Positions 4,953 through 62,923 of a stretch of DNA of 64,000 nucleotides are shown here, in pieces. Position 1 is the first letter of the stretch; the number at the start of each line of letters is the position of its first letter. The position numbers and the translations under genes are program-made. Source of the DNA: a virus (Duplodnaviria; Heunggongvirae; Uroviricota; Caudoviricetes); the IMG/VR virus record IMGVR_UViG_3300042992_000089; one strand, written 5' to 3'. A model generated the notes under the pieces. That model worked only from the letters and a program-made list of their open reading frames with translations. It searched no databases and was not told the DNA's origin.

Positions 4953-4984
4953 TTTGGAAAGGGTGCAAGGATTAACTATCTTTG
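4953..4984 (+). promoter_or_regulatory. Candidate Bacteroidota-type promoter: TTTG -33-like element plus a TATCTTTG -7 box
   Basis: TATCTTTG at 4977-4984 lies 18 nt upstream of the ATG at 5003. TTTG at 4953-4956 lies about 21 nt further upstream. There is no SD. Confidence 0.35.
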
Positions 4985-8283: not shown

Positions 8284-8945
8284 TTGGTTCTAAATTTAAT
8301 TTCATCAATTCTAAACTTCCTTTCTTTCTCTTCACTCATACCTCCCACATTTAATGTTTCCATATGACAGACAATAGAATGTCTTACAAGAGCATGTTTA
8401 ATACCAGCCTGCTTTAGTCTTTCTGCATAGTCGTTGTCTTGATAGTACATATCAAACAACTCATCAAATGGTAAGATCTTATCTAGTGCAGACTTCTTAA
8501 TCACTGTACACCAACCTTGTAATGCTTCTGTCACAGCATAAGATTCATGATACTTACTATCAGTTCCTACAAAATGATTAGGGAACCATCTAGCATATAA
8601 CAATGGGTCTTTAGGAGAGAATGCTTCTATGTCTTCTCTGTAGTCATGTACCTTCATCATCTCTGAGAACCACCATCTTTCATAAGCTACATCATCATTA
8701 GATATAACCACCCAATCACCTTGGCAATATGTAAATGCTATGTTTAAAAACTTGTTGTAGTTAAAAGAATTCTCAGGATGTATATAGTTATGAATACGTG
8801 CATACCTATTTGGATCTTGTGTACCTGAGTCTACTAATTGCACACGAAACCTAAAGTCAATCTCACTATCATGCAATGTATCTATTGTACGTTGTGTCAG
8901 AGCCACATTAGTGCTATCTGTTAATATGATTACATCTATTGTCAT
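8271..8945 (-). CDS. Glycosyltransferase, GT-A fold (GT2-like)
   Basis: VVISNDDVAY is a DxD-like motif in a roughly 220-aa GT-A sized protein. Confidence 0.5.
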   Translation of the reverse strand: MTIDVIILTDSTNVALTQRTIDTLHDSEIDFRFRVQLVDSGTQDPNRYARIHNYIHPENSFNYNKFLNIAFTYCQGDWVVISNDDVAYERWWFSEMMKVHDYREDIEAFSPKDPLLYARWFPNHFVGTDSKYHESYAVTEALQGWCTVIKKSALDKILPFDELFDMYYQDNDYAERLKQAGIKHALVRHSIVCHMETLNVGGMSEEKERKFRIDEIKFRTKWNQ

Positions 8946-11605
8946 TTCTTTCTGAATGATTTATGTGTATTGTCTATTAAAGAAAATCCATCTGCTTGGG
9001 TAGTAAGTCTTTTCTTAACCATTCCCATTTGAGGCCCTGCAAAGATACTATTAAAATACATATCAGCAGCATCCCATTTGTGTGTTCTTAAGTTGTTCTT
9101 TAAAAACTTAGCTGCCTCTTTTGGAAACATAATAGATTGTAAACCAATGATATGATTGGTTACATACATTTCATTATTGATATCTTTAACAATAGGTGAT
9201 TGTGGCCAGCCATGTTCTAGTGTATCAGCATCTCCAAAAGACATATAGTTTATGTTGTTTGGTACCAATAAGTGTGCACATTCCTCAACTTTTCGTACGA
9301 AAAAGTGTATGTCTGTCTCAATGATACAATCTCCTTCACACACCATTAAGAAGTCACAATCATGAAACTCTGTTAAGATGGCATTCTTAAATGCTTCGTA
9401 GCATCCATAATGTGCTGGGGTAAGTGCAGTGCCATACTGTTGAATTTGTTGCTCATTGAAGAGTTCCATTGAAACACAATCTGGTCTGAGACAGTTATGC
9501 TTGGGTGGTAATGACTTATAGGGCTCGTTAAACTGTATGACATATTCCCAGCCATGGTCTTTGACTCTTTCAAGGGATGCTCTACTTTGTTGTTCTCTTT
9601 CATCATTTAATGTGGTTTGTATATGAACTAATTTAATCTTAGGTCTTTCGTTCTTCCATTCAAACTTTCCTGTGTGTTGGTACTTATGTAAGTTATCTTT
9701 GGTCAGCTTAAACTCTTCCAACTTATATTGAACATCTCCATCATAAAAATCCATTTTAATATCTATAGGATCTCCTTTGAATTCAAACTGATAAACAAGT
9801 TCATGGTTCTTAGCTGGTATTATTCTTTTCCACATGTAATCTTCAATAGATACATAGATGTTTCTATAGTCTCTGTTATATGTAAAGAAGTAGAACACAT
9901 AATTGTTTGGTTTTCCAACAACAGGGATGATAGAATAATACTCACTATTTGATGCTACACCTAATCCACTGTGAACTAACAAGGTATCCTTATCATTAGT
10001 AACTAACTGTATATCATTTGGGTTGAAGCTAAAGATAACCTTTGACAAATAGTCTTCTAGATAGTTCTCACATCTTCTTCTCTTACACACTTCGTTCCAT
10101 TCTTCTGGTGTACGCACATCATCAAACTCTTTCAAGAAGAAGTCTGTGTCAAACATAATACCATTGGTCTGAATTCCCTTACCCTGTGGAGTGGGTAGGG
10201 TAGCAGCATATAACTTTTTATCTGTTCTGAATGCATCATTTACTGCAGGGATATCTCTAGGATCTAATACAACATCATATGTAGTATAGAAGAACCTCTT
10301 AAACCCAAGCTCTTTAGCAACCTTAGCTGCATTAAATATATTAGTTAAGACAGTCAATGACTGGTTACTATTCTTCAATCCATTGATGTTGATCTCAGCA
10401 AAGTAGTCTGGTCTGTCATTGTAAAACCTGGTGTAATAACTGTGATGAGTCAAAGGATTATGCACATCGTATATATAACAATCCACCATGTTTTGAATGT
10501 CTATATCTACAGGATAGTGAGACACTAGTATAATCTTTCTACCCAATGGTTTAAGACTATTGATAGTATCCTTAGTCCATTGAATCCTATCCTTAATGTT
10601 TGGATAGGTGCCTAAGATGATACACTCTTCTTCCATTACATCTAAGTTTAATTTTTTGATAATATTGGTAGCATCACTACCAAGATCTCCAGTTAAATAA
10701 ACCATGTTCTCTTCATTGTTATATTTGTTACAGTATACATCTAGATTATACATCACTTTGATCAAGTCATCATATTCCATGGCTTCTTTAATAGCAATAG
10801 GATTTAACTCCTTGTTACCTCTATCTCCCTTTGATGGAAAGAAGAATACATCACATGCTTTTAAGAAGTCACTTACATCATCACGCTCTCCCCAGACAAC
10901 ACAGTTGTTTGGTTTATTAGCCATCAGTGGCTTCCAATAATTCTCAAAGTTACCTGCTTGGTTACCTAGGAAGTGAAACTTCACCTTATAGTTCTTAAGT
11001 CTTTCTGCTAGTTGAAATGCATAAGCTTGATTCTTTCTAGGTGTAAATAGTCCTACAGTTACAAAGTGTTTGTATTCAGGATCTAAGCCATAGTCTTTTT
11101 GTCTTTCTACTTTATTTCTAACCTTCTTATCAATAGGATATTCAATTACTTCTGTAGGTACATCTAAGTCTATGTATTGGAATGAGTTGTAAGAGCTAAC
11201 AAATATAAACTTGTCAGGCATCCATCTCTTGTGCTTAGGATTGAATGAGCTGTCATGCGTAGTCTCTGATATCTTCCAAGTTCTATTATCTGAATAGATG
11301 AATGCAGAAAGCTTGTCGTCCATGAACATCTCAGGAAACTCTTCCATCACTATAACATCTGGATTGAACTGTTCAATAATTCCAGACAGTTCACCATACT
11401 TATCTTCTCCTAAAGAATGGAAGTTAACTCCTTCTGTAAGCATTTGAATGATCTTGTTTCGCTGTACAACAAATGACCATGCTAGAAATGAATACTCTAC
11501 CACCTTAATTTCAAAGTAATCTTTTAACAGTTCCACTTTGTTTACTGTTACCTGAGGAGCCCCTCCTGTTGATAGGTGAGGAGTGATTATTAATAGCTTT
11601 TTCAT
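8942..11605 (-). CDS. Large multidomain glycosyltransferase: N-terminal GT4 module plus additional C-terminal transferase-like domains
   Basis: The N-terminus MKKLLIITPHLSTGGAPQ plus FFFPSKGDRGNKELNPIAIKEAMEY matches GT4 N- and C-motifs. The C-terminal 300 aa (GCYEAF...FLMVCEGDCII) look like a second nucleotide-sugar transferase domain, possibly GT25-like, but this is unverified. Confidence 0.6.
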   Translation of the reverse strand: MKKLLIITPHLSTGGAPQVTVNKVELLKDYFEIKVVEYSFLAWSFVVQRNKIIQMLTEGVNFHSLGEDKYGELSGIIEQFNPDVIVMEEFPEMFMDDKLSAFIYSDNRTWKISETTHDSSFNPKHKRWMPDKFIFVSSYNSFQYIDLDVPTEVIEYPIDKKVRNKVERQKDYGLDPEYKHFVTVGLFTPRKNQAYAFQLAERLKNYKVKFHFLGNQAGNFENYWKPLMANKPNNCVVWGERDDVSDFLKACDVFFFPSKGDRGNKELNPIAIKEAMEYDDLIKVMYNLDVYCNKYNNEENMVYLTGDLGSDATNIIKKLNLDVMEEECIILGTYPNIKDRIQWTKDTINSLKPLGRKIILVSHYPVDIDIQNMVDCYIYDVHNPLTHHSYYTRFYNDRPDYFAEININGLKNSNQSLTVLTNIFNAAKVAKELGFKRFFYTTYDVVLDPRDIPAVNDAFRTDKKLYAATLPTPQGKGIQTNGIMFDTDFFLKEFDDVRTPEEWNEVCKRRRCENYLEDYLSKVIFSFNPNDIQLVTNDKDTLLVHSGLGVASNSEYYSIIPVVGKPNNYVFYFFTYNRDYRNIYVSIEDYMWKRIIPAKNHELVYQFEFKGDPIDIKMDFYDGDVQYKLEEFKLTKDNLHKYQHTGKFEWKNERPKIKLVHIQTTLNDEREQQSRASLERVKDHGWEYVIQFNEPYKSLPPKHNCLRPDCVSMELFNEQQIQQYGTALTPAHYGCYEAFKNAILTEFHDCDFLMVCEGDCIIETDIHFFVRKVEECAHLLVPNNINYMSFGDADTLEHGWPQSPIVKDINNEMYVTNHIIGLQSIMFPKEAAKFLKNNLRTHKWDAADMYFNSIFAGPQMGMVKKRLTTQADGFSLIDNTHKSFRKK

Positions 11606-13656: not shown

Positions 13657-13787
13657 AAAAATATTTGGTAGTTTCAACTTTTTTACTTAGTTTTGCCAGG
13701 AATTAGATAGCTTAACTTAAATAGGTCTTTCTGACCATATTATACACTCATGTCCTGGGTGTATTTTTATTTCTACAACTTACTATA

Positions 13788-14108: not shown

Positions 14109-14340
14109 TCTATTTGATGATAACAATTCTATTAATGAGAAGGCTGTAATTGGATTTGCAGCTTTTATTATGATGATTATATTTGCTGTAGCAGACATTG
14201 TTACAGGGGCTATGAACCAACCATTGTTAGTTAATGAGTTTATATTTGACTCATTCAAAATATTAACAATAGCTTGCTTTGGTATAGCATCTGTTGATAA
14301 GTGGATAAACAAAAAAAACCAAAATGAATCTGATGAATAA
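14089..14340 (+). CDS. Holin candidate (two TM segments, charged C-terminus)
   Basis: The two hydrophobic segments are AVIGFAAFIMMIIFAVADIV and ILTIACFGIASV, and the protein ends KKNQNESDE. It sits two genes upstream of the endolysin. Confidence 0.45.
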   Translation: MKKFFSDLFDDNNSINEKAVIGFAAFIMMIIFAVADIVTGAMNQPLLVNEFIFDSFKILTIACFGIASVDKWINKKNQNESDE

Positions 14341-33770: not shown

Positions 33771-35243
33771 TTAATCAATTTTTACAATTCTCTTAGATAT
33801 TTCTTGTTTAATTTCATCAAGACTCTTAACAATTGTATAAACTTCTACAGCAGACAAAGCAGGTAAGTTGAAATCATACTTCTTAGCTTCTGCAGTGAAT
33901 CCTTGCTTAGCCTTCTCAGCTAAGTTATCTAGCTCACGCACAGCATAAGACTCATCCAACTCAAGAGTGTCAAAGTCTAAGTCATGTAAGATTTCTGTTG
34001 CTTCTTCACGTGGCACAGTCATAATTGGTAAATACTCATAGCATCTACCCTTAGACTGACCAATACCTACCACCTTCATAGGATTGATAAGTACAAGCAC
34101 GCTTGTGTCACCACAACCTACATAATGAATCTCATCACTAGTGAAGTGTAATCCTTCAGCACCACAGTCGTCAGTATTCCAACGACATGATTCCATAGGC
34201 ATATCTACTGGTCTACCAATTCTGATGTCAAATGTTCTTGTGTGAGCATCTGTATATCTATTCTCTGCTCTATTAGGCAAATCGAGATATAGCTCAGTTA
34301 AGTTACCAATCTCTTCACCATGATCTACACGAACAAGGTCTTTGTATATTCCTTGTTCATCACACTCATAACACTGACCACTATCATCATATTCTTCATC
34401 ATATTCAGGAGTTGTTCCTGAACCATCACAATAAGAACATGTAACCATTTCTTCTCTAAACATTGCGTCCATGTGAACCATTTTGTACTCACCATTTTGC
34501 AAGAAGACACTATAGTCATCTGGTTTCTTCTTCCATACAGCTTTCACTTTATTATATGCATTGGACACAAAGTCTACAAGTTCTGTACCTCCATGTAATG
34601 TCACTACGTTTCTCAAAGCTACAAAGAAGCCCTGTTTAGTGATACTAAAGCTATTCTTCTTCAAGAAGTTAAATAACTTATCTGCCACTTCAGCTCTAGG
34701 GTTCAAGCAACACCACATGAAGAATCTATGCAAAGCATTGAATTCATCATTGTCTGTGCCACCATGTCTACCTACCACTTCTAAGAACTCTTCCACTAGT
34801 AATGGAGGTAAGCTTCTGTTGATGCCTTTTAGATACAAAGCATTGTTTTTCATTTCAAATTGCTCAAGGGTAGCTAAATACTCAGCACCTCTTTGAATAG
34901 CTTTAGCTTTCTCATACTCAGCTTCAGCTTTTCTTTTCTCATCTCTAATCTCCTGTGTGCTAACAAGATTAATTAGACAAGCTTCTGTTCTACAGTCTCT
35001 AGCAGCATTGAAATCATCTGCTGTTGCTGGAGATTTAGTAATGATATTACCATCATTCATTACAATAGTCAATGTATCATTAACCATTTTAATGTTTAGA
35101 TAGGGCTTTCCTGAAGGATGATAAGAAGGGGCTACTTGCCCCTCCTCATTATCCAATTCATTAAAAGCCTGCTCAATTTTGTTTTCTACTACCTTTTCAA
35201 TTGTGCGTTCAATAGCACTCTTAAACCATTTTAAGCTTAACAT
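33771..35243 (-). CDS. Hypothetical protein (490 aa) with a Cys cluster (CSYCDGSG...CYECDEQG)
   Basis: This is a long ORF with no recognisable catalytic motifs. Confidence 0.5.
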   Translation of the reverse strand: MLSLKWFKSAIERTIEKVVENKIEQAFNELDNEEGQVAPSYHPSGKPYLNIKMVNDTLTIVMNDGNIITKSPATADDFNAARDCRTEACLINLVSTQEIRDEKRKAEAEYEKAKAIQRGAEYLATLEQFEMKNNALYLKGINRSLPPLLVEEFLEVVGRHGGTDNDEFNALHRFFMWCCLNPRAEVADKLFNFLKKNSFSITKQGFFVALRNVVTLHGGTELVDFVSNAYNKVKAVWKKKPDDYSVFLQNGEYKMVHMDAMFREEMVTCSYCDGSGTTPEYDEEYDDSGQCYECDEQGIYKDLVRVDHGEEIGNLTELYLDLPNRAENRYTDAHTRTFDIRIGRPVDMPMESCRWNTDDCGAEGLHFTSDEIHYVGCGDTSVLVLINPMKVVGIGQSKGRCYEYLPIMTVPREEATEILHDLDFDTLELDESYAVRELDNLAEKAKQGFTAEAKKYDFNLPALSAVEVYTIVKSLDEIKQEISKRIVKID

Positions 35244-35254
35244 GTTTTGCTTTT

Positions 35255-37603
35255 TTAAATTGTTTGTAATTCTTCAATTGTGTCTTGTGTCAATGTCTCC
35301 TCTAAAGGAGCATCTTCTGTTAATATGAGCTTGTAATGCTCTAGGTTTACCTTTTGCTTGTGATACTTAAATAGATCAACAATAGCTGTAATAAAAGGAC
35401 TATCACTATTTCCACTTCTGTATCCCATTCTATCTAATAGTACATTTAAGAATGGTAGCTTAGTAAACACTTCATTAACCTGATTGTAAACTATATATAC
35501 AGGTTGGTCAAACAGGTTATTTTCTTTTGCATGTTCTACAATAAGATTTTTGGTTGTACCATCAGCATAATACATACTGTTATCTCTATGATACTTGTTT
35601 AGTAGTTCTAACTTATCTGCTAGATCATTAGAAATCTCTCTAACAATTTCAATTCTGTTGAATGTTGCTTTCTTATCTTCAAAAAGTCGTTCAATCAAGA
35701 ACTCTGTAGCCATGGTTTTAAATGGTCTGTTTTTACCTTCCATAAATTTATCTATTGTTATCCAGTTATGTAAATCAGCTTTCTGTAAGTTATCTATTGT
35801 AGCTTGGGCAACAATAACAAAGTTTGCTTGTCCATTAAATACTGACCATAGTCTATCTAATTCTTTCTTATCAGACTCTTTACCATAAATGTGTAACTTA
35901 GATGACCTATGGATGTCTTCCATCTTAAATGTTGTAGGAACAAACTTACAATATTGATCAGACATATGTATTTCCATTTTTGTACCCACCTTACCAGAGA
36001 ACTCACCTTTCATTCTTATCTTCTTAGGACCCTTTATAGCTGCAACTGATATCTTCATTCTCTTAGCCTTCTGAGCATCCTTAAATGATTGTGGAATCTC
36101 AATAGCATCTACATCTATAAAGTCTTTAGCATACAGCCCCACTACATATTGAAACTCTTGAATAACTTCTCTCCATTGAGATTTTGGATACATATTAAGT
36201 CCTAATACAGAGTCATAATACTTAGCATAATCTACTTGACCAGTTTTACTTCTAAGTTTAAATGGTGATTTCTTAACAAAATATATGTGTTTATTATCTG
36301 GTAGAATAGTTCTTAGATAGTCTTGTTTACCTTTAGAAAGCTCATTTTCATAAATATATACACCACCAAAGTTATAAGCTGTAAAGTCTGACATTCTTAG
36401 ATACTCGTGATAATAATTTTTCATAGTTTGAAACTTACCAGTAAATCTGTATTTAAACTTGTATTCAGCCAAGATATACTCCTTTGATTTTACAGCAAGT
36501 CTTTCTAAATTCAGCAACTTTATGTTATCTAGTTTAGGCTGTGCTACAGGTGTAGAAGAATGAATTACAAGATCATCTATACAAACTTCATCGTCTGTAC
36601 CCTTGTACCAAGACTTAATATACTTGTTGTTTTTGCTATAGAATTGCATAATAGCTTTGATATCACTTTGTGTAGTGATGGCTTCATTAAACTTTTCCAT
36701 AAATACATTAGCCACTGTAGCTATCTTGTTAAGAATAGTTTCTTTAGCTTCTTGTGTATATCTAATAGCTTCTCTGTTTGGTGTAGGGAATAATCCATCA
36801 CTAAGACTGAATCTCAAAGCCATTTTGATACCTATTCTGCTTATGCCAAGCTTATCCCAATCAATAGGATAACTAACATTGTCTAAACAAAGATGCATGT
36901 CACTATTAGTAGCTAAGCTAGAATATTGGAAATGTTCAGCTCTGTGTATTGTGAAGTCATTGGTAACAGAATAACTACCCATTGGTTCTACATCAAAATA
37001 GACATTCTCAAAATAAGCCAATTGCTCTTTGATTTTATTAACAAAATTGTATCTATCATAGTAGGTTACAGGTACAATCACCTTTACACCATTTGGTTCG
37101 TCTGTTGCCCTTTCGTACAACAAGTCAATACTATTTGTATCTTCTCCTTCGTACATCATGTACTTACGTTCCATACCATCTTTTCTAGCTATAAAGTAGA
37201 AGCTAGAACTGTATGCCAATGGAGCCTTGAAACCAAGACCCATCATACCTAGTTCTGTGTTGCTGTTACGCTTAGTTGACTTACCATACTTACTGATGAT
37301 ATTTACTACATCATCTGCATCTAAGCCAATACCAAAGTCTTCAACAGCAAATTCATATGTATCTGCCTGATTGTTTCTCTTAAATGAAACAATGATAGGC
37401 TTGTCACTTCCAGCTCTTCTGTGACTATCTAGTGCATTGGATGCACATTCTCTGATAGTAGAGCCTATTGAATCTGAATAAAGATTCTTACTTAACATCT
37501 GCATCAGAACCTGAGCAGAATCTAAGTCTAGTGACATTTTCACAGTTTCCTGTGTGGTTCCTTCTTGAAGGATGTGTGATTCTGTTTGTTTTTCGAGTAT
37601 CAT
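35255..37603 (-). CDS. GHKL-family ATPase with an Hsp90-like N-terminal ATP-binding domain
   Basis: RECASNALDSH (N-box, compare Hsp90 ELISNASDALDK), EDFGIGLD (G1, compare DTGIGMT) and GMMGLGFKAPLAYS (G2, compare GQFGVGFYSAFLVA). The protein is 782 aa. Confidence 0.65.
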   Translation of the reverse strand: MILEKQTESHILQEGTTQETVKMSLDLDSAQVLMQMLSKNLYSDSIGSTIRECASNALDSHRRAGSDKPIIVSFKRNNQADTYEFAVEDFGIGLDADDVVNIISKYGKSTKRNSNTELGMMGLGFKAPLAYSSSFYFIARKDGMERKYMMYEGEDTNSIDLLYERATDEPNGVKVIVPVTYYDRYNFVNKIKEQLAYFENVYFDVEPMGSYSVTNDFTIHRAEHFQYSSLATNSDMHLCLDNVSYPIDWDKLGISRIGIKMALRFSLSDGLFPTPNREAIRYTQEAKETILNKIATVANVFMEKFNEAITTQSDIKAIMQFYSKNNKYIKSWYKGTDDEVCIDDLVIHSSTPVAQPKLDNIKLLNLERLAVKSKEYILAEYKFKYRFTGKFQTMKNYYHEYLRMSDFTAYNFGGVYIYENELSKGKQDYLRTILPDNKHIYFVKKSPFKLRSKTGQVDYAKYYDSVLGLNMYPKSQWREVIQEFQYVVGLYAKDFIDVDAIEIPQSFKDAQKAKRMKISVAAIKGPKKIRMKGEFSGKVGTKMEIHMSDQYCKFVPTTFKMEDIHRSSKLHIYGKESDKKELDRLWSVFNGQANFVIVAQATIDNLQKADLHNWITIDKFMEGKNRPFKTMATEFLIERLFEDKKATFNRIEIVREISNDLADKLELLNKYHRDNSMYYADGTTKNLIVEHAKENNLFDQPVYIVYNQVNEVFTKLPFLNVLLDRMGYRSGNSDSPFITAIVDLFKYHKQKVNLEHYKLILTEDAPLEETLTQDTIEELQTI

Positions 37604-42092: not shown

Positions 42093-42305
42093 TTACTGAT
42101 TTGTTTCCTCCAAAGGTAACGTAATTTCTTGAGATTTCAAAATATTTTTTTGATGTTTTAACAAATCTGGATTAGCAACAATCTCATTATAAAACGTCTC
42201 TGCAGACTCTCTGTGGGCAAACCATTTGATTGTATAATCATCTGCTTTCACTGCATACATTGTGCCATTTCCTGGATTGATTTCTTCTATTAACTCTAGT
42301 TTCAT
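42093..42305 (-). CDS. Hypothetical small protein
   Basis: This ORF shares its MKLELI N-terminus with the ORF at 52223. Confidence 0.4.
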   Translation of the reverse strand: MKLELIEEINPGNGTMYAVKADDYTIKWFAHRESAETFYNEIVANPDLLKHQKNILKSQEITLPLEETNQ

Positions 42306-52852: not shown

Positions 52853-53092
52853 CTAATTGCCTGCTCCAATATCCTGAACAAAATAGAACTCACCACCATG
52901 AATGAGTCTAATACCACCATATAATATACCATCTATATGAACAAACTTATCCAACACACCTTGTATTGGCAATTCCATAGACTTAATACTATCAATAGAG
53001 ACTTGTTCACTCTCTATAAAGAAATCATCCTTACTAATAGGACTAATGTTATTGCCAAATAATGTATAGGCAAGTTGTTGTGCGTTATTCAT
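52853..53092 (-). CDS. Hypothetical small protein
   Basis: ORF. Confidence 0.35.
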   Translation of the reverse strand: MNNAQQLAYTLFGNNISPISKDDFFIESEQVSIDSIKSMELPIQGVLDKFVHIDGILYGGIRLIHGGEFYFVQDIGAGN

Positions 53093-53254
53093 ATAAATGC
53101 TATTTAATGCTATATATATTGTATTGTATAGCGTGAATTAATGTATCTTGAAAAGATAGCTAAAAGGGCCTATTAAGCACACACCTCTTCAAACATTCAC
53201 ACGAAATATATTGATTATCAGTGTGTTATATTGTCTGAAGTCTTGATGTTGTAT

Positions 53255-54195: not shown

Positions 54196-54438
54196 ATGGT
54201 AGTATTATTACTTGGTTGTATTGTTGGTCTCTTGAGTGTGATTGTAGTGGTATGGGGGTTTGTACACTTTGAGGAGTGGGAGATAGGGATAGAGTTTCTA
54301 CCTAAACATTATAACAACTTTGAGCTAGGAATATCGAATAGAAACTACGAGCTGACAGATGGAGGACTAGAGCAAGAGCTTAGAATAGGTCTGTTATTAT
54401 TCACCTTTTTAATCATGTTTAGGAGATTTGATGCATAA
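54196..54438 (+). CDS. Small membrane protein
   Basis: It has two hydrophobic segments (VVLLLGCIVGLLSVIVVVWGFV and LLLFTFLIMF) and is the first gene of the plus-strand block. Confidence 0.4.
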   Translation: MVVLLLGCIVGLLSVIVVVWGFVHFEEWEIGIEFLPKHYNNFELGISNRNYELTDGGLEQELRIGLLLFTFLIMFRRFDA

Positions 54439-54496
54439 TATAGCATTAACTTTTATAATAACTAAAATAGTTATTTGTAGATCGTCCAGATATACA

Positions 54497-54504
54497 TACC
54501 TTTG
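54497..54504 (+). promoter_or_regulatory. Candidate -7 box TACCTTTG
   Basis: It lies 12 nt upstream of the ATG at 54517. Confidence 0.3.
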
Positions 54505-56044: not shown

Positions 56045-56363
56045 GAAAACTACATACGTAAATACAGAGCTTGAATGGGCAGAAGTACAGCTAAAGTCTT
56101 GGAAAGCATACGTTGATGCTAATCCACTACATGAATTGAAAGATAGGATTGAGTGGAAACCTACAGCTAAAGGAGGAATGTTACCTATGGTCATAGCCTC
56201 TATTGAAGCTCAAGGTAAGTTTGTCCAAGAGACAATGAAAAACTACCTAGCATTGGTAGAAGTGGTAGATAAGTTAAGAAACATGGAAGAAGCTAAGGTG
56301 GAAGTGAGAGGAAAAGGTGAATTATCAGGAGCTGCTGCTGAGTTCTTAGCAAATAGAAAATGA
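56031..56363 (+). CDS. Hypothetical protein immediately upstream of terL (small terminase candidate by position only)
   Basis: The N-terminus is MATIKKTTYV, and its stop overlaps the terL ATG (ATGA). Confidence 0.35.
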   Translation: MATIKKTTYVNTELEWAEVQLKSWKAYVDANPLHELKDRIEWKPTAKGGMLPMVIASIEAQGKFVQETMKNYLALVEVVDKLRNMEEAKVEVRGKGELSGAAAEFLANRK

Positions 56364-58402
56364 TAGAACTACAAAATATAGATTACAAAGACTGGTTTAT
56401 AAATCAGAAGCGTATTCCTGATAAAGACTCTCAGGAGTGTAAGCCATTCTTTGACTTTCACAGAGAGCTATGTTTAAATGGAGCCATGATGGGGGGTGTT
56501 TATATCAACCCCTTTTTGTATTGGCACCTAAACATATGGCATACAGAGGTAGATGTAATAGATGAAAGAGGAAGGATTGCACAGAAATATGCCAATCCTT
56601 TTTTAAGAGATAATGAATGGCTTGTGACAAATGAAATTGACAGAGCTCAACAAGAAAAGAGGGGCTTAGTCATTCTAGGTATTAGACGTTTTGCCAAGTC
56701 AGTTTTAGAAGCATCCTATATTGCATGGGGTGCAACCTTTGATGAAAACAGTCAGAATATCATAGCAGGCTTAAATGCCCCAGATATAAAACTGATTACT
56801 GATAAGATTGACAAAGGATTGAATTTCATTCCTGAGTATTGGAGATGGCAGAGAATTGAGGACAACTGGAAGAACCAAGTGACTCTAGGTATAAAGACCA
56901 AGTCTGGTGAACGTATCCCATTCTCTTCCATTCTAATACGTAACCTTGATGAAGGTAATAATGAAGAGGCCATTGCAGGTACAAAACCACGTAAATTAAT
57001 TATAGATGAAATTGGTAAAGGAAACTTTCTTAGAGGCTTACAGGCTGCTATTCCAGGTTTCACTACACCCTATGGCTGGGGATGTAGCCCCATACTTACT
57101 GGGACTGGTGGGGACATGAAGAAATTCATGGATGCAAAGAGCTTAATGTTTGACGTAGACAACTTTAACTTCCTTACATATAATAATAGTAAAGATGACA
57201 AACGTATACATGGATTGTTCATCTCTCATAAATATAGAATGGAGGCAAAGGATGATTCTACACTAGGAGCATATTTGAATGAACCATCCACCTCAGACTT
57301 ACACAATGTAAAAATGCTTGTAAGTGATGAAGAAAAGGCAACACAGATTACTAATGATAATTTAGAAAGACTTAAGAAAGCTGGAGATAGAATAGCCTAT
57401 CTAAAAGAAAAGATGTACTATCCTCAGGAAGTGGATGACATTTTCTTAAATGAGGATACTAATATATTTGATATTGACAGTGCTAAGAGACAGAAGTTTA
57501 GATTGTTGCAACAAGAAAGAACAGGAACTCCTGTTATCTTGTTTAATGATGGAGAGAAGATAGCTCATGAGTTTACAGATAAATTACCCATCTCTAACTT
57601 CCCTCTAAAAAACTCAGACCTAAAAGAAGCACCTGTTGTTATATATGAATTCCCTGTGGATAATCCTCCTTATGGATTGTATGTAGCAGGAGTCGATCCA
57701 TATAGACAAGGTAAGTCTGCATATTCAAGTTCACTTGGATCTGTATACATATATAAAAGGATGCATGAAATTTCAGGTGAGAAGTATCAAGATATGTTCG
57801 TAGCTTCGTATTGTGCAAGACCTGATAAGAAAGAAACTTGGGAAGAACAAGCTAGACTTCTTATTAAATACTATAACGCTAGAACTTTGTGTGAGAATGA
57901 TGATATATCATTTATTGAATATATGAAGAGTAAAGGAGATGCACACTACTTAGAGAAACAACCTGAATGGCTTAAAGAGATTGTTCCTAATACCACTGTA
58001 AAAAGAGATTATGGAATTCATCGTTCAAGTCAGAAGATAATTGACTATCTTCACACCTGTTTAAAGAAGTATATGGAAGCTCCAATCTTTGTAGAGAAGA
58101 ATGACGCAGGTGAAGTGATTAGAGAAGTCTTGGGTGTGAGTAAGATATTTGATCCTGTATTGCTTGAAGAGATTATTCAATACAATGATCAAGGTAACTT
58201 TGATAGAATTATTGCTGCAGAGTTAGCAATAGCACAAGCATTAAAGATGGACCCAATAATGGGTAAGATAGGTGGTACATCAGATGAGAGAGTAGCTTCT
58301 ATGTTCAATAAGAAAAGAGGCAATATACTTTTCACTGAAGCTAGGAACAACATGTTTGGACAATCAAGAAATAAATATAAACGAAATAAATTGTTTTCAT
58401 AA
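56360..58402 (+). CDS. terL: Terminase large subunit
   Basis: GLVILGIRRFAKS is a deviant Walker A, PRKLIIDEIG is Walker B, and the C-terminal half has the terminase nuclease layout. Its size (680 aa) and position before the portal also fit. Confidence 0.8.
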   Translation: MIELQNIDYKDWFINQKRIPDKDSQECKPFFDFHRELCLNGAMMGGVYINPFLYWHLNIWHTEVDVIDERGRIAQKYANPFLRDNEWLVTNEIDRAQQEKRGLVILGIRRFAKSVLEASYIAWGATFDENSQNIIAGLNAPDIKLITDKIDKGLNFIPEYWRWQRIEDNWKNQVTLGIKTKSGERIPFSSILIRNLDEGNNEEAIAGTKPRKLIIDEIGKGNFLRGLQAAIPGFTTPYGWGCSPILTGTGGDMKKFMDAKSLMFDVDNFNFLTYNNSKDDKRIHGLFISHKYRMEAKDDSTLGAYLNEPSTSDLHNVKMLVSDEEKATQITNDNLERLKKAGDRIAYLKEKMYYPQEVDDIFLNEDTNIFDIDSAKRQKFRLLQQERTGTPVILFNDGEKIAHEFTDKLPISNFPLKNSDLKEAPVVIYEFPVDNPPYGLYVAGVDPYRQGKSAYSSSLGSVYIYKRMHEISGEKYQDMFVASYCARPDKKETWEEQARLLIKYYNARTLCENDDISFIEYMKSKGDAHYLEKQPEWLKEIVPNTTVKRDYGIHRSSQKIIDYLHTCLKKYMEAPIFVEKNDAGEVIREVLGVSKIFDPVLLEEIIQYNDQGNFDRIIAAELAIAQALKMDPIMGKIGGTSDERVASMFNKKRGNILFTEARNNMFGQSRNKYKRNKLFS

Positions 58403-60990
58403 TGGCAATTATAAGATACACGAAAGACGCAACAATTAGGTATGCCTACCTTAATATCTTCCCTGATCAGTTCAAGACTGAGAGAGAAAAGATGGATGAG
58501 AGTTGGATTAAAAACACAATGGACTATTTTGCTAACAAGGCATATGCTGAGTATGTTAAGAGCAGAGATACATTTGTTAAAAACTATGACTTAGTAAAAG
58601 GTATTCTAAGAAGAGAAGATTTTTATCAAGAACCAGAAGTAAGAAGTTTTACAGATGTGCTCACAGCAGATTTAGCTCTTCCTGCCTATGTAAAACATTA
58701 TTCTATAATGACCACTCCTATTAACGAGTTAGTAGGAGAAATCTCTAAGAGACCTGACGCATTTCGTGTCAAAGCATTTGATGATGATAGTAAAGCTGAA
58801 GAGCTTGAGTTTAAAACTCAAATGTTAAATGATTATGTAGTTAATACAGCCAAGAGAAAGATATTAGAAAAGGCTGCTATGAATGGAGAAGAGATTGAAG
58901 AGGAAGAATTAAATCAAATGACTTTAGATCAAGTTAAAGATGAATTAGACTCTTATACATCTACAGCAGAAAAGTGGGCAAACCATATTCTTACAGCTCA
59001 GAAGGCTGAGTTTAATTTAAAGGAGAAAGGAGAAGACTCTTTTAGAGATCTTTTAATTTCTGCTAGAGAGTTCTTTCACATATATGAAGATAACTCTAAG
59101 CTTGGATTTAACGTTGAGGTGGCTAATCCTAAGAACACTTGGTTCTTAACTACTCCTGATAGAAAATGGATATCTGATCCTACAGGTCGTGCACAAGGTG
59201 CATATGCTGCTGGTATTGTACAAGTTATGGAATTGTCTGAGATTATTGAATCTATCCCAGACTTAACTAAAGATGAGATTGATCACTTACGTAGTTCATT
59301 ACAAGACTATGGATTGATCAATGTACGTGAATCTAACTTGGGCAATCCTAATGCTATTCCTGGTAATGAATCTATTCAATACGATACATTTGACCCATTA
59401 GTCTTACAGACTAGAATGATTATTGAGTCTGAGATGAAACAGAATGATGATGGTCTTCAGGACTTCTTAGGACTTACATCTAATGTAAGCTCTTTTGGTT
59501 ATAAGTATGTTGTAGTAAGATCTTATTGGATTTCTAAAAAGAAGATAGGTAAAGTTATTTACTTAGATGAGATGGGTAATGAACAGTCTCAACTTGTAGA
59601 TGAAAACTATAAATCTGGAATGCTTCCTACACAACAGTCTTTAGAGTGGGGTTGGATTAACCAATGGTATCAAGGTGTTAAAATTGGTCCAGATATCTAT
59701 CATGTCAAACCTTATAACTTATTACCTTATTGTCCTATCATAGGTCAAACGTTTGAAGTGAAGAACACAGAGGCTAAGAGTCTTGTAGATATGATGAAGC
59801 CTTTCCAAGTTTTATATAATGTGTGTATGAACCAGTTATATAAATTACTTGAGAAGGAAGTAGGTAAGGTTCAGTTAATGTCTATTAGACATATTCCTAT
59901 TCCTAAAGATGGAGATGCTCAAGATGCTCTTGACATTTGGGAAATGGAAGCTCGTAACAGAGGTGTAGTATTTGTGGATGATAGTCCAGAAAACTTAAAG
60001 AGCCCAAGCTCATTTAATCAATACACTAGCTTAGACCTTACACGTACGCAGGAGATCCAAGCAAGATACACTCTAGCACAACAACTTAAGAATGAGTGTT
60101 GGGAATTAATAGGTATGTCAAGACAAAGACTTGGTGCTATACAAGCTAGTGAATCAGCTACAGCAACCAATGCAGCCATTACACAATCTTATGCTCAGAC
60201 AGAACCTTTATTTGTAGCTCATGAATATATCATGGGTCAATTATATCAATCTATTATTGATGCTGCTTTATATGTAGAAAGTTCTAAACCACAATCTACT
60301 ATTTCTTATGTAAATTCTGAAGGAGAATCTGCATTTGTTTCTGTAAATGGTTCAGACTTACGTTTTAGAGATTTAAAAATATTCTTGACTAACAGACCTG
60401 AAGATAAGCAAATGTTTAATGAAATTAGAGGTTTGTCTCAAGCTGTTCTACAAAATGGTGGTTCATTACATGACATCATTGAGCTTTATAGCACTAACTC
60501 TATTCGTCAGATGAAGAAGGTGTTCAAAACTCTTAAGAGCAGACAAGAAGAATTGGAAGTTACTAAGTTACAACAACAACAACAACAATTAGACCAACAA
60601 CAGCAACAAGCTGAAGCTCAACTGCAATTACTTCAACAACAACAAGCTGAGAAGATTGCTAATGATAATTATCAAGCTGAGCTTGATAGAATCAATAAAA
60701 AAGAAATTGCTCTTATTGCAGCAGAGGCTAAGAACATGGGACCATTGAGTGATGAAGATGCTTCTGGTGTTCCTGATGTATTGGAAATCAATAAGTTAGC
60801 TACAGAGGAATCAAAAGCTATAAAAGATTATCAAAGCAAGATGGCTGATATTCAATCTAAGAATAGGATGGCTTCACAAAAACTTGAAGTTGAAAGAGAA
60901 AAATTACAAGTGGCTAGAGAAAACCAAGCAAATGATTTAGCTATTGCTAAGGAAAATGCCAAGGGTAGAGCTGCTAAAAAACCTAAATAA
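58402..60990 (+). CDS. Portal protein candidate (862 aa) with a poly-Gln coiled-coil C-terminal region
   Basis: It lies directly after terL with a TAATG overlap. The C-terminus contains QQQQQQLDQQQQQAEAQLQLLQQQQAEK. Confidence 0.5.
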   Translation: MAIIRYTKDATIRYAYLNIFPDQFKTEREKMDESWIKNTMDYFANKAYAEYVKSRDTFVKNYDLVKGILRREDFYQEPEVRSFTDVLTADLALPAYVKHYSIMTTPINELVGEISKRPDAFRVKAFDDDSKAEELEFKTQMLNDYVVNTAKRKILEKAAMNGEEIEEEELNQMTLDQVKDELDSYTSTAEKWANHILTAQKAEFNLKEKGEDSFRDLLISAREFFHIYEDNSKLGFNVEVANPKNTWFLTTPDRKWISDPTGRAQGAYAAGIVQVMELSEIIESIPDLTKDEIDHLRSSLQDYGLINVRESNLGNPNAIPGNESIQYDTFDPLVLQTRMIIESEMKQNDDGLQDFLGLTSNVSSFGYKYVVVRSYWISKKKIGKVIYLDEMGNEQSQLVDENYKSGMLPTQQSLEWGWINQWYQGVKIGPDIYHVKPYNLLPYCPIIGQTFEVKNTEAKSLVDMMKPFQVLYNVCMNQLYKLLEKEVGKVQLMSIRHIPIPKDGDAQDALDIWEMEARNRGVVFVDDSPENLKSPSSFNQYTSLDLTRTQEIQARYTLAQQLKNECWELIGMSRQRLGAIQASESATATNAAITQSYAQTEPLFVAHEYIMGQLYQSIIDAALYVESSKPQSTISYVNSEGESAFVSVNGSDLRFRDLKIFLTNRPEDKQMFNEIRGLSQAVLQNGGSLHDIIELYSTNSIRQMKKVFKTLKSRQEELEVTKLQQQQQQLDQQQQQAEAQLQLLQQQQAEKIANDNYQAELDRINKKEIALIAAEAKNMGPLSDEDASGVPDVLEINKLATEESKAIKDYQSKMADIQSKNRMASQKLEVEREKLQVARENQANDLAIAKENAKGRAAKKPK

Positions 60991-61520
60991 TGTTTGATAA
61001 ACTGATTGAGATAATAACTAACTGGTGGTTACAACTAACTCCAGTTATTATTGTCAGAGACTATGAAGGAGCTGTATTACTAAGGTGTGGAAAATTCTAC
61101 AGTGTTCTTGAACCTGGACTACATTTTAAGATTCCTTTGTTTGATGAGGTGATAGATCACCATGTAGTAACAACTACCCTTAGTCTTGATGCTCAATCTT
61201 TATACACCTTGGACAAACAAAACATTGTTGTCAAGGGAGTTGTAAAATACAAGATAGCTGATGTAAAGATATTCCTACTTGAGGTATTTGATGCACAAGA
61301 TGCATTGTCAGACATGTCTCAAAGTATAATAAAAAACGTTATTATGTCAATGACCATGGAGGAATGTACAGATCAGGAACTTGACAACACTTTGACAAAG
61401 AAAGTTAGAGTGGAAGCTAGGAAATGGGGAGTTGAGGTTCAACAAGTTACACTTACAGACCTTGCCCCAATCAGAAGTTATAGGTTTATAAATGACAACT
61501 TTCTTAACAAATTAGATTAG
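60990..61520 (+). CDS. SPFH/band-7 (stomatin/prohibitin/HflK-like) domain protein with an N-terminal TM
   Basis: IIVRDYEGAVLLRCGKFYSVLEPGLHFKIPLFDEVIDHHVVTTTLSLDAQSLYTLDKQNIVVKGVVKYKIADVK...KWGVEVQQVTLTDLAP matches the SPFH consensus (GE.GVV.RFGK...PGLHFK.PFID.V....R...L....Q.V.TKDNV.V.VD.VV.YRI.D.........WGIEV..V.I.DI.P). Confidence 0.65.
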   Translation: MFDKLIEIITNWWLQLTPVIIVRDYEGAVLLRCGKFYSVLEPGLHFKIPLFDEVIDHHVVTTTLSLDAQSLYTLDKQNIVVKGVVKYKIADVKIFLLEVFDAQDALSDMSQSIIKNVIMSMTMEECTDQELDNTLTKKVRVEARKWGVEVQQVTLTDLAPIRSYRFINDNFLNKLD

Positions 61521-61639
61521 AGTAAAAAATATTAATGCTATATTATATTGAATAATGGTCAATATAAAGGCTCCTCTCTTTGCTATTAACTTAAGTTACT
61601 TTACTTTTACATACAAAACCAATTAAAACTCAACTACAT

Positions 61640-62923
61640 ATGGCTGAAAATCTAGATATGCCCCAAATGGGTAATTTTAGTATTCAAGATACTATGGATA
61701 TGGGAATGGGAAGTCAAGAGTTATTAAATGACTTGTTATCTCCTGATAGTGCTACATCTAACCCTGATGACATTCAGGATATTAAAGATGAACCTACACC
61801 TGCATCCACAAAGAAAACTACTTCTAAACAACCAGCTACATCAGCTCCTGCTCCAGAAGATGATAAGAAAGAAGAAGCTCCTGTAAAGGACATTCAAAGT
61901 TTCTTATATGGAGATGAAGATGATGAAGATGCTGAAGAAGATGATGACGCTCCTGCAACAGATAAAAAACCAGTTGCAAAAGGTGCTGATAATCAAGAAG
62001 ATAGTAATGAAGATGGTGAAGATGGTGAAGAAGCAGTTCCTAACCAATTCGAAGCTTTATCAAAAGATCTTTTAAAACTAGGTGTCTTTTCACAAGACGA
62101 AGATGAAGAAGAAACAGTTATTGATAGCCCTGAAGCTTTCTTGGAAAAGTTCCAAGCAGAGAAGAAAAAGGGAGCTATTGAAATAGTAAACAACTTCATT
62201 GGTCAGTTTGGAGAAGATTATCAAGAAGCATTTGATGCCATATTTGTAAAAGGAGTTAGTCCAAAAGACTACTTTAGTGCATATAATCAAATCCAATCTT
62301 TCTCTGATATGGATTTAAGCGATGAGAGTAATCAAGTTGCTGTTATTAAACAAGCATTGACAGATCAAGGATTTGAGCCTGAAGATGTTACAACAGAGAT
62401 TGAAAGACTTAAAAATTATGGTGACTTAGAAACTGTTGCTGCTAAACACCACAAAGTCTTGATAAAAAAGGAAGCGTCAAAGCTTCAACAATTAGAGCAA
62501 GATAAACAAGCTCAATTACAACAGCAACAAGCCATCAAGCAACAATACTTACAGAATGTAAACAATGTTTTACAAGAGAAGATTAAAGCTAAAGAATTTG
62601 ATGGCATACCAATTAACCCTAAATTAGCTGGTGAACTACAAGATTTCCTAGTAACAGACAAGTACAAGACAGCATCTGGAGAAACTCTCACAGACTTTGA
62701 TCGTACTATACTGGAGCTGAAACGTCCTGAGAATCATGAGAAGAAGGTCAAACTTGCTCTATTGATGAAAATCATTGAGAAAGATCCTACACTATCTACT
62801 ATTCAAAAGACAGGTATCACCAAAAAGTCTAATGAATTATTTGGTGAGGTTGCCAGACAAGCCCAGAAGAGTTCAGTGAAATCTAAACAGTCAGCTAGAC
62901 CTACTTCTTCTTGGTTTCAATAA
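61640..62923 (+). CDS. Acidic coiled-coil protein (scaffolding-protein-like)
   Basis: It has an Asp/Glu-rich N-terminal half (EDDEDAEEDDDAP...EDGEDGEE), Q-rich coiled coils, and a position between the portal and a capsid candidate. Confidence 0.4.
   Translation: MAENLDMPQMGNFSIQDTMDMGMGSQELLNDLLSPDSATSNPDDIQDIKDEPTPASTKKTTSKQPATSAPAPEDDKKEEAPVKDIQSFLYGDEDDEDAEEDDDAPATDKKPVAKGADNQEDSNEDGEDGEEAVPNQFEALSKDLLKLGVFSQDEDEEETVIDSPEAFLEKFQAEKKKGAIEIVNNFIGQFGEDYQEAFDAIFVKGVSPKDYFSAYNQIQSFSDMDLSDESNQVAVIKQALTDQGFEPEDVTTEIERLKNYGDLETVAAKHHKVLIKKEASKLQQLEQDKQAQLQQQQAIKQQYLQNVNNVLQEKIKAKEFDGIPINPKLAGELQDFLVTDKYKTASGETLTDFDRTILELKRPENHEKKVKLALLMKIIEKDPTLSTIQKTGITKKSNELFGEVARQAQKSSVKSKQSARPTSSWFQ

Follow-up and report, generated by a model that had tools for sequence, protein, structure and literature searches.

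Proteins of the SPFH superfamily build large membrane cages, amongst them HflK/C, which modulate FtsH, a protease that the lambda protein CIII inhibits via an amphipathic helix. The SPFH domains of HflK/C face the periplasm in E. coli. Bandyopadhyay et al., as cited in PMC10269572, are said to have reported in 2010 that HflK or HflC alone inhibits FtsH proteolysis of CII in vitro. SPFH (Band 7) proteins are also encoded by phages, as in the case of the 'lipoprotein' family phrog_200, ORFs of the T4-like phages 44RR, Aeh1 and RB43, gp200 of Vi01-like phages, OLIVR1 gp51c, B1VFA_024 and CSP3 orf75. Most of these are full-length proteins of 280-390 aa with anchors or lipoprotein signals, encoded in early or metabolic regions, and for phage SPFH proteins in general a literature search returned no data on interaction partners, localisation or phenotypes. 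Here we describe a much shorter protein of a freshwater crAss-like phage, termed mini-SPFH, whose gene lies in a stretch of 64,000 nucleotides (the window). Like the other phage SPFH genes it is a sporadic accessory Band_7 gene that varies between close relatives, and we consider it very probable that its product is an accessory, anchorless SPFH core encoded in a swap slot.

The gene is an ATG-started ORF of 176 aa occupying exactly positions 60990-61520 (+), as given in the initial annotation. Its product matches the Pfam Band_7 family (PF01145) over residues 21-160 with an E-value of 1.4e-25 and 90.8 bits, well above the gathering cut-off of 23.6 bits, and covers profile positions 2-147 of 176, which bears out the assignment to the SPFH proteins made from the sequence. 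The AF2 model (mean pLDDT 93.9) adopts the alpha/beta SPFH fold, with a Foldseek probability of 1.00 to stomatin, HflK/C, QmcA, prohibitin, erlin and flotillin; the best matches are human stomatin, HflK, HflC, QmcA and prohibitin, with E-values down to 3.7e-15. These targets comprise 250-420 aa, and the TM-score of about 0.77 on the query as opposed to about 0.5 on the target indicates that mini-SPFH represents the core alone of the canonical proteins. This core, made up of the membrane-proximal beta region and the alpha/beta SPFH domain, extends over residues 19-160 (61044-61469, +; TM-score 0.77) and aligns with residues 30-178 of stomatin and 24-165 of QmcA. The description as a near-textbook SPFH domain is thus apt for the core and does not extend to the rest, since the protein stops 14-16 residues past it.

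The best core matches belong to the stomatin/QmcA (YbbK) type (human 9oh9, E. coli 8z5g, P. horikoshii PH1511; phmmer E-value 4.5e-12, Foldseek E-value 3.7e-15), with which mini-SPFH shares the canonical motifs R-x-G-K, P-G-L-H and T-x-D. However, proteins of this type measure 250-310 aa and feature a hydrophobic hairpin or TM anchor, the CC1/CC2 coiled coil and a C-terminal cap, all of which are missing from mini-SPFH. An NfeD partner gene, as accompanies stomatin/QmcA, does not adjoin it either: the genes flanking the examined loci gave no NfeD-family Pfam match, the adjoining genes being those for the portal and the protein preceding the major capsid protein (pre-MCP). HflK/HflC belong to the same superfamily, and members of the mini-SPFH family carry the JGI label 'regulator of protease activity HflC'. 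Amongst the NCBIfam models, HflK (TIGR01933) is the best match with 72.3 bits against an equivalog cut-off of 159.4, followed by HflC (TIGR01932) with 48.1 bits against 134.4; with both scores far below the cut-offs, mini-SPFH does not score as an equivalog of either protein. Unlike HflK/HflC, it has no TM segment or periplasmic topology signal, is not encoded in a paired K/C arrangement and lacks the wall and cap by which FtsH is enclosed.

The N-terminus had been taken for a TM segment in the initial annotation, a prediction that fails on inspection of the hydrophobicity. Over 19 residues the Kyte-Doolittle mean peaks at 1.22, short of the usual 1.6, and the summed Hessa insertion cost of the segment amounts to approximately +8 kcal/mol. 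DSSP analysis of the AF2 model instead assigns a helix of about 15-16 residues to aa 2-16 (60993-61037, +), which is followed by the conserved Pro18. In 64 diverse family members the first 20 residues contain a median of four charged residues, residues 3, 7 and 14 are conserved as acidic, the helical hydrophobic moment of the segment is 0.56, and a Kyte-Doolittle mean of 1.6 is attained by only 11 of the 64. The resulting family pattern, M-phi-D/E-K/R-phi-phi-D/E..W..P, describes an amphipathic rather than a membrane-spanning helix. No conserved Cys or lipobox was found in the family, so that neither a TM helix nor a hydrophobic hairpin nor a lipid modification is present as an N-terminal anchor, and the label 'membrane-anchored' is not supported. 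Peripheral membrane association is possible; the polar face of the helix is net acidic, which is unusual for helices binding anionic bacterial membranes and renders membrane proximity uncertain. At the other end of the protein, the alignments terminate at query residue 160-162, while QmcA, stomatin and HflK run on for another 80-170 residues of coiled coil and cap. The AF2 confidence likewise holds to residue 160 and drops to a pLDDT of 70 and then 55 in the last two blocks. In place of coiled coil and cap there is a short, low-confidence tail of aa 161-176 (61470-61517, +), in which R165 is near-invariant across the family. Without CC1/CC2 and cap, the known route to a 16- to 26-mer cage is closed to mini-SPFH.

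Short SPFH proteins of this kind are widespread. The mini-SPFH family comprises 763 clusters at E<=1e-10, nearly all of 168-187 aa, and in BFVD the nearest structure is that of a 173-aa 'HflK' from an uncultured Caudovirales phage (TM-score 0.86). The protein belongs to a distinct, core-only family of about 175 aa that stands apart from most other phage SPFH proteins. A profile search with a diverse alignment (A2) returned the same abundant clade and nothing further, and IMG/VR locus searches from two distant single members gave almost no matches. Divergent members of about 175 aa are found in other phages at unrelated, non-head places. Several members do lie in or next to late or structural modules, next to the portal gene as described here or to virion-structural PHROGs (L084), and further contexts include TerL (MW202733) and tail fibre and endolysin genes (L087); the protein may therefore have a virion-linked role. 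The length of the type found here (type A) is constant at 175-176 aa over 73 unique sequences, and with a dN/dS of 0.076, compared to 0.089 for TerL and 0.097 for the portal, the gene is under strong purifying selection.

The unit to which the mini-SPFH gene belongs begins, as far as large genes are concerned, with the large terminase subunit TerL (56360-58402, +; phrog_6681, E-value 1.4e-85), which is syntenic across all related loci. It is followed by the gene for the 862-aa portal protein with a Q-rich C-terminal extension (58402-60990, +; PF16510 P22_portal, E-value 5.9e-17; phrog_6547, E-value 1.8e-97), the best relatives of which are found in crAss-like phages and in the Leptolyngbya phage Lbo-JY46. 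A search at the DNA level gave no similarity to isolate phages. The portal stop codon and the SPFH start codon overlap in the sequence TAATG (60988-60992, +), an arrangement that, read off the sequence, is typical of translational coupling, and in the relatives the gap between the two genes measures 0-12 nt. Downstream lies the gene for an acidic, Q-rich, putatively scaffold-like protein of 427 aa (61640-62923, +; phrog_16294), homologous to the crAss-like pre-MCP protein, with a BLASTP match to cr10_1 gp_19789 (E-value 6e-7) and a weaker one to the Lbo-JY46 counterpart. Its homologue sits directly upstream of the MCP gene in crAss-like phages, and in the relatives of our phage the Crass_capsid MCP gene is likewise next; position, composition and homology together suggest that the protein may be the scaffold. 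A search for PDB relatives found none, and the literature on the scaffold protein of crAss-phages provided nothing usable. Identity with the cr10_1 'peptidase' was considered and rejected, as that match falls on the next cr10_1 gene. The placement of the SPFH gene between portal and scaffold-like genes was thus correctly recognised at the outset, with the scaffold part a presumption, and it is kept in most relatives.

Upstream of the scaffold-like and MCP genes we located a promoter-like site of the Bacteroidota type, TTTG-N19-TACTTTTA (61579-61609, +), which is positioned 28-33 nt before the ATG in 69 of 71 unique upstream regions; the motif occurs 13 times in the window where 6.4 +- 2.3 occurrences are expected. 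A sigma-70 promoter scan was uninformative, the host being a probable member of the Bacteroidota, and no RNA structure was detected in the intergenic region between the SPFH gene and that of the 427-aa protein (z -0.23). Since the TerL-portal unit ends with the mini-SPFH gene as its last cistron, which overlaps the portal gene and is separated from the downstream genes by their own promoter, the protein is probably made late and at portal-like levels.

Comparison of 154 related loci reveals that the slot between portal and pre-MCP genes is exchangeable. In 133 of them it contains a type A mini-SPFH, in 11 a second type (type B) that is about 28% identical to type A and also matches Band_7 (E-value 2e-14), in nine two unrelated small ORFs, and in one (L167) it is empty. 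On the portal tree the four states intermingle, and in close relatives whose portal is approximately 80% and whose MCP is 95% identical the slot is empty or taken up by unrelated small genes. The mini-SPFH gene is also absent from the crAss-like phages Lbo-JY46 and cr10_1, so that, in contrast to what is expected of a core head-morphogenesis protein, it is not present wherever its cognate portal and MCP are. Neither the ORFs of the alternative cassette nor the cr10_1 'peptidase' had an informative Pfam or PHROG match, and an HExxH sequence in an 84-aa ORF is for this reason regarded as a motif only. The arrangement resembles the internal-protein gene cassettes of T4-like phages, where an exchangeable gene likewise occupies a fixed site in the head cluster, with conserved flanks and unrelated alternative contents; unlike the T4-like internal proteins, mini-SPFH yielded neither a prohead-protease cleavage motif nor a capsid-targeting sequence. 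An N-terminal capsid-targeting signal common to the different cassette proteins was also considered and was not supported on inspection.

A gene in an exchangeable slot that is dispensable for virion building, yet strongly constrained, is best understood as encoding an accessory rather than a morphogenetic protein, and together with the missing membrane-spanning anchor the slot makes mini-SPFH look like an optional, host-directed factor and not a part used in building the capsid. The suggestions in the initial annotation that the protein may manipulate a host protease or act in superinfection or lysis timing suit such a cassette better than capsid assembly does. As to the mechanism, the leading candidate is that mini-SPFH mimics host SPFH scaffolds or competes with them, a proposal we regard as doubtful on present evidence; accessory status and mechanism taken together form the explanation we tentatively favour, at somewhat less than even odds. 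According to this proposal, mini-SPFH would reside in the cytoplasm or at the cytoplasmic face of the membrane and would either bind the partners of host SPFH proteins (an FtsH-type protease, proteins of the NfeD type or membrane proteins that are clients) or become a lateral member of host SPFH rings without being able to extend the cage wall. Either route would alter membrane proteolysis or membrane organisation of the host late in infection. HflK/C, facing the periplasm, would be out of reach of a cytoplasmic mini-SPFH, which could access only cytoplasm-facing SPFH proteins of the QmcA/stomatin or flotillin type in the host. The core-only phage family could in that event be a natural dominant-negative or decoy, which would provide a tool to probe SPFH assemblies and add a new class to the phage proteins of host takeover or counter-defence; should the role be a minor housekeeping one, the finding would amount to a refinement of the annotation. 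A bolder generalisation, which we consider unlikely, would make the mini-SPFHs of about 175 aa a large phage-specific class of host-directed effectors, traded as cassettes in an arms race. They would cap host SPFH cages, disrupt them, or imitate them and so tie up FtsH- or NfeD-type partners; the wiring to the portal gene seen here might then reflect additional loading into the capsid and delivery along with the DNA.

Other readings of the locus have to be weighed against this one. The membrane-associated capsid assembly proposed initially would cast mini-SPFH as a platform close to the membrane on which the portal ring and the procapsid are nucleated or chaperoned, analogous to the gp40-gp20 initiator of T4 on the inner membrane. 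The overlap of the gene with the portal stop codon, by which the two would probably be co-expressed, and the retention of this order in most of the clade are in line with such a role, as are the neighbouring structural or packaging genes in L084 and MW202733 and the very divergent type B allele at the same position, which suggests that an SPFH function is selected at this location. However, a platform of this kind is difficult to reconcile with the lack of an anchor and of the region required for ring or cage formation, with close relatives and other crAss-like phages that do without the gene, and with family members in non-structural regions, which together weaken the idea to the point where we judge it very unlikely. 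The same location between portal and scaffold-like genes, and the variability of the cassette, would also fit a cargo protein that is packed into the procapsid with its N-terminal helix as the targeting signal, and whose early action after ejection into the following host might be directed against a membrane-linked defence. T4-like phages have variable internal-protein genes, and crAss-like phages such as crAss001 are known to package cargo proteins. The short helix is indeed conserved; its conservation, however, is family-wide and includes phages with unrelated gene contexts, so that it would seem to belong to the family fold rather than to serve as a phage-specific capsid-targeting signal, and it bears no clear N-terminal similarity to the alternative cassette proteins. 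The sole mention of a phage SPFH in virion mass spectrometry concerns a different, lipoprotein-type protein that was retrieved three times (PMC10892097). Packaging as cargo appears quite improbable.

A further reading dispenses with host SPFH and FtsH altogether and sees in mini-SPFH a protective or counter-defence factor at the membrane, either a late stabiliser of the inner membrane or a blocker of a trigger that depolarises the membrane in abortive infection, superinfection or premature lysis. Counter-defence and exclusion genes typically show such a pattern, with presence, absence and allele exchange interleaved at a hot spot, and expression is probably late. RIIA- and RIIB-like genes are present in the same genome, and RIIA/RIIB of T4 are membrane-linked anti-abortive-infection factors. 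In bacteria, a link has been drawn between SPFH proteins and the tolerance of membrane stress (PMC10434171). On the other hand, mini-SPFH has no anchor to place it in the membrane, a phage SPFH in such a role is without experimental precedent, and PADLOC, the models of which cover defence and not anti-defence, gave no meaningful match apart from a marginal one to CARF (E-value 0.0099); we consider this reading a minor possibility. That the gene might be a functionless remnant of a host SPFH gene, captured and now decaying, as its shortness relative to cellular SPFH proteins could suggest, is extremely improbable and was rejected on the low dN/dS and the breadth of the family, whose hundreds of diverse clusters share a uniform architecture of about 175 aa; the constant length of type A and the confident fold prediction argue in the same direction.

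Mini-SPFH as an accessory cassette gene draws attention to the site itself, a precisely bounded, hot-swappable position within a head operon that is otherwise rigid, in an abundant crAss-like lineage of fresh water, which informs how accessory genes move in Crassvirales-like genomes. Across the related loci, the right boundary of the cassette is clean and coincides with a nearly invariant element, TTAGAGTAAAAAATATTAATGCTATATTAT (61517-61546, +), which spans the stop codon of the slot occupant. The element is kept after type A and type B SPFH genes, after the alternative cassette and after the portal gene of the empty-slot locus. Related copies of it occur at 52.9-54.5 kb, with four matches as compared to 0.41 expected.

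The open reading frame at 60990-61520 (+) encodes, from an ATG start, a 176-aa protein, here termed mini-SPFH type A, which matches the Pfam Band_7 model over aa 21-160 with 90.8 bits (cut-off 23.6; E 1.4e-25). The NCBIfam HflK and HflC models also match, far under their equivalog cut-offs; among solved structures, stomatin (E 4.5e-12), QmcA and HflK are nearest in sequence. An AF2 model built from a diverse 64-sequence alignment is confident (mean pLDDT 93.9, pTM 0.83), and a Foldseek search against the PDB returned human stomatin, HflK, HflC, QmcA, prohibitin, erlin, flotillin and vault protein, all with probability 1.00. Together, the Band_7 match, the model and the structural matches bear out the SPFH assignment of the initial annotation: mini-SPFH carries a true SPFH domain. 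The description of this domain as near-textbook holds for the core but not beyond it, as the chain ends 14-16 residues past the SPFH domain, while those of stomatin, QmcA and HflK run 80-170 residues further into a coiled coil and cap, the region that closes known SPFH cages.

The N-terminus was proposed to be a transmembrane anchor, a claim contradicted by several properties of the segment. The Kyte-Doolittle mean of its most hydrophobic 19-mer is 1.22, the Hessa costs sum to about +8 kcal/mol, and the helix in the AF2 model spans only 15 residues (aa 2-16) before the conserved Pro18. The segments of 64 family members, 40% identical on average, conform to M-phi-D/E-K/R-phi-phi-D/E-phi-phi-x-x-phi-W-D/E-x-phi-x-P; the first twenty residues include a median of four that are charged, the helical hydrophobic moment is 0.56, and a Kyte-Doolittle value of 1.6 is reached by just 11 of the 64. 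We found no conserved cysteine or lipobox in mini-SPFH. The N-terminus is thus an amphipathic helix whose polar face is net acidic and which does not span the bilayer; it could serve in membrane-surface location or protein binding.

At TAATG (60988-60992), mini-SPFH starts within the stop codon of the gene before it, an 862-aa ORF encoding the portal protein (PF16510, E 5.9e-17; phrog_6547, E 1.8e-97), itself preceded by the large terminase (phrog_6681). Downstream lies p427 (61640-62923), an acidic, Q-rich 427-aa protein homologous to the protein directly upstream of the major capsid protein (MCP) in crAss-like phage cr10_1 (E 6e-7) and, more weakly, to the corresponding protein of Leptolyngbya phage Lbo-JY46; in close relatives it is followed by a Crass_capsid (PF23898) MCP. 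The gene order of the initial annotation was therefore right, with p427 as a putative scaffold protein. The portal carries a long, Q-rich, charged C-terminal extension (aa ~720-862; 60550-60990; QQQQQQLDQQQQQAEAQLQLLQQQQ...), possibly a P22-like barrel, and p427 likewise carries a Q-rich coiled segment. All 81 loci retrieved with the SPFH protein share the order TerL-portal-SPFH-p427-MCP, and SPFH identity (70-92%) follows portal identity (78-89%). Pairwise Nei-Gojobori dN/dS values, approximate because dS is near saturation, are 0.058 for MCP, 0.076 for SPFH, 0.089 for TerL, 0.097 for the portal and 0.154 for p427, a clear sign of purifying selection. What is kept under constraint is an SPFH core lacking both a transmembrane anchor and the cage region.

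To survey the gap between portal and p427 genes independently of SPFH, we sampled the clade through p427 and obtained 154 loci with both flanks. This slot holds type A mini-SPFH in 133 loci, a 175-aa type B in 11 and two unrelated small ORFs in nine; in one (L167) it is empty, with a gap of 146 nt. Type B (L132:4336-4863, L130:4355-4885, also in L133, L134, L161, L164, L165, L169 and L170) shares ~28% identity with type A, matches Band_7 with E 2e-14 and occurs in genomes whose portal is ~80% identical to that of the window; it is a distant homologue of the same family that replaces type A. The alternative cassette (L137:4403-4639 and L137:4617-4871, also in L142, L143, L145, L146, L147, L149, L153 and L160) comprises two overlapping ORFs, one acidic (78-83 aa) and the other (84 aa) with a zinc-peptidase-like HEHFH (HExxH) motif; neither matched Pfam or PHROG. 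The slot states are interleaved on a neighbour-joining tree of the portal, which indicates repeated cassette exchange; genomes carrying SPFH nest amid 'other' ones, and type B turns up at no fewer than three places. At the same position, the distant crAss-like phages Lbo-JY46 and cr10_1 carry nothing and other genes, respectively. The clade can exchange mini-SPFH or do without it; in architecture the protein represents a new form within a known superfamily, and its gene resides in a swap slot.

The right boundary of the slot is sharply marked in all states by a near-invariant 30-nt element, TTAGAGTAAAAAATATTAATGCTATATTAT (61517-61546), which comes after whichever gene is last, even if that gene is the portal, as in the empty-slot genome. 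Related copies with 2-3 mismatches to its 18-nt core lie at 52921-52938 (-), 53091-53108 (+) and 54435-54452 (-), clustering in the divergent early/late switch region (4 matches to the core versus 0.41 expected). The element gave no RNA structure signal and may serve as a site for regulator binding or recombination. It is followed by a promoter-like site (61579-61609), which 69 of 71 unique upstream regions retain, and then by a conserved 5' leader. Mini-SPFH overlaps the portal gene start to stop, and the scaffold-like and MCP genes downstream of it have a conserved promoter-like site of their own; we infer that mini-SPFH is expressed late, at portal level.

An exhaustive HMMER search over 1.84 billion cluster representatives gave 4211 matches at E<=1e-3, of which 763 reach E<=1e-10. 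The best 150 are nearly all 168-187 aa long and align end to end; mini-SPFH forms a distinct family. The viral protein structurally closest to it, from an uncultured phage, has 173 aa (TM-score 0.86). Divergent members sit on phage-like contigs at varied locations: among virion-structural PHROGs (L084), after tail fibre and endolysin genes (L087), directly after TerL (MW202733), among small accessory genes with NUDIX, methylase or glycosyltransferase neighbours (L180), flanked by Prim-Pol on one side and GroEL/ES on the other, close to an integrase and a sigma-factor-like gene (L181), or in regions without annotation. Scanning genome contigs with type A alignment patterns gave a phage-like contig in a Sediminibacterium MAG as the sole close match. 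In one divergent phage, a conserved 59-aa ORF (L087:9526-9705, L088:540-719) starts one nucleotide past the mini-SPFH stop codon and could encode a partner protein.

SPFH genes have been described in T4-like phages (PMC1524935), Vi01-like phages (PMC10892097), Burkholderia phage CSP3 (PMC10269572), Bruynoghevirus and PAK_P3-like phages (PMC8540360), a T5-like phage (PMC12752171) and one gut Crassvirales genus (bioRxiv 10.64898/2026.08.21.746148), in each case as annotations or as 'morons' varying between relatives; we found an experimental test for none of them.

Mini-SPFH retains the SPFH core, the part that packs laterally and contacts partners, without the regions for anchoring and cage closure. 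On these grounds the most economical mechanism, put forward tentatively, is that it would mimic or compete with host SPFH scaffolds or their partners, such as FtsH- or NfeD-type proteins. That it acts as a membrane-protective or counter-defence factor appears unlikely, and packaging as a cargo protein somewhat less likely again. Membrane-associated capsid assembly, suggested in the initial annotation from the gene's position, would make the protein a platform for portal or procapsid assembly; this rival is the most weakened and seems improbable, since the gene is dispensable in the clade and its family occurs in varied genomic contexts.

Relatives of the portal, at 23-28% identity, belong to crAss-like phages (Crassvirales), to phages of Flavobacterium and Cellulophaga, and to Lbo-JY46; the window has no DNA-level match to isolate phages, and metagenomic relatives reach ~115 kb. 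The window has a GC content of 35.5% and encodes DNA polymerase, RNR, RIIA- and RIIB-like proteins and collagen-like tail fibres. Matches to the Bacteroidota promoter motif TTTG-N17-21-TAnnTTTR number 13 versus 6.4 ± 2.3 expected, a count reached in none of 100 shuffles. Many of these sites, which include 4953-4984, 13664-13695, 14155-14185, 42111-42141 (-), 54474-54504 and 61579-61609, stand just 5' of ORF starts, pointing to a Bacteroidota host. L175 (JBBAJX010000014.1), a 59-kb, 35%-GC contig binned in a Sediminibacterium sp. MAG, holds the whole TerL-portal-SPFH-p427-MCP module at 80-97% identity (mini-SPFH 80%); it is probably a co-binned phage contig and gives a weak host hint. Motif enrichment, portal relatives and L175 weakly suggest that the host is probably a freshwater Bacteroidota. 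A near-consensus sigma-70 promoter-like site inside the mini-SPFH ORF (61350-61323 (-), TTGACA-16-TATACT, 11/12) is, given this likely host, probably due to chance.

RIIA- and RIIB-like genes lie at 35255-37603 (-) (phrog_612, E 4.8e-56) and 33771-35243 (-) (phrog_609); they are unusual for a crAss-like genome, and their T4 namesakes are membrane-linked anti-abortive-infection or lysis-inhibition factors. The Gly-rich repeats of the two collagen-like tail fibre genes (174-1688 and 1713-4547 (+)) push GC to 42-45% and yield many spurious overlapping GTG ORFs. An 886-aa protein (8942-11605 (-)), whose N-terminal region resembles glycosyltransferases (phrog_2170, E 3.3e-8), is encoded in a leftward operon of unannotated genes.
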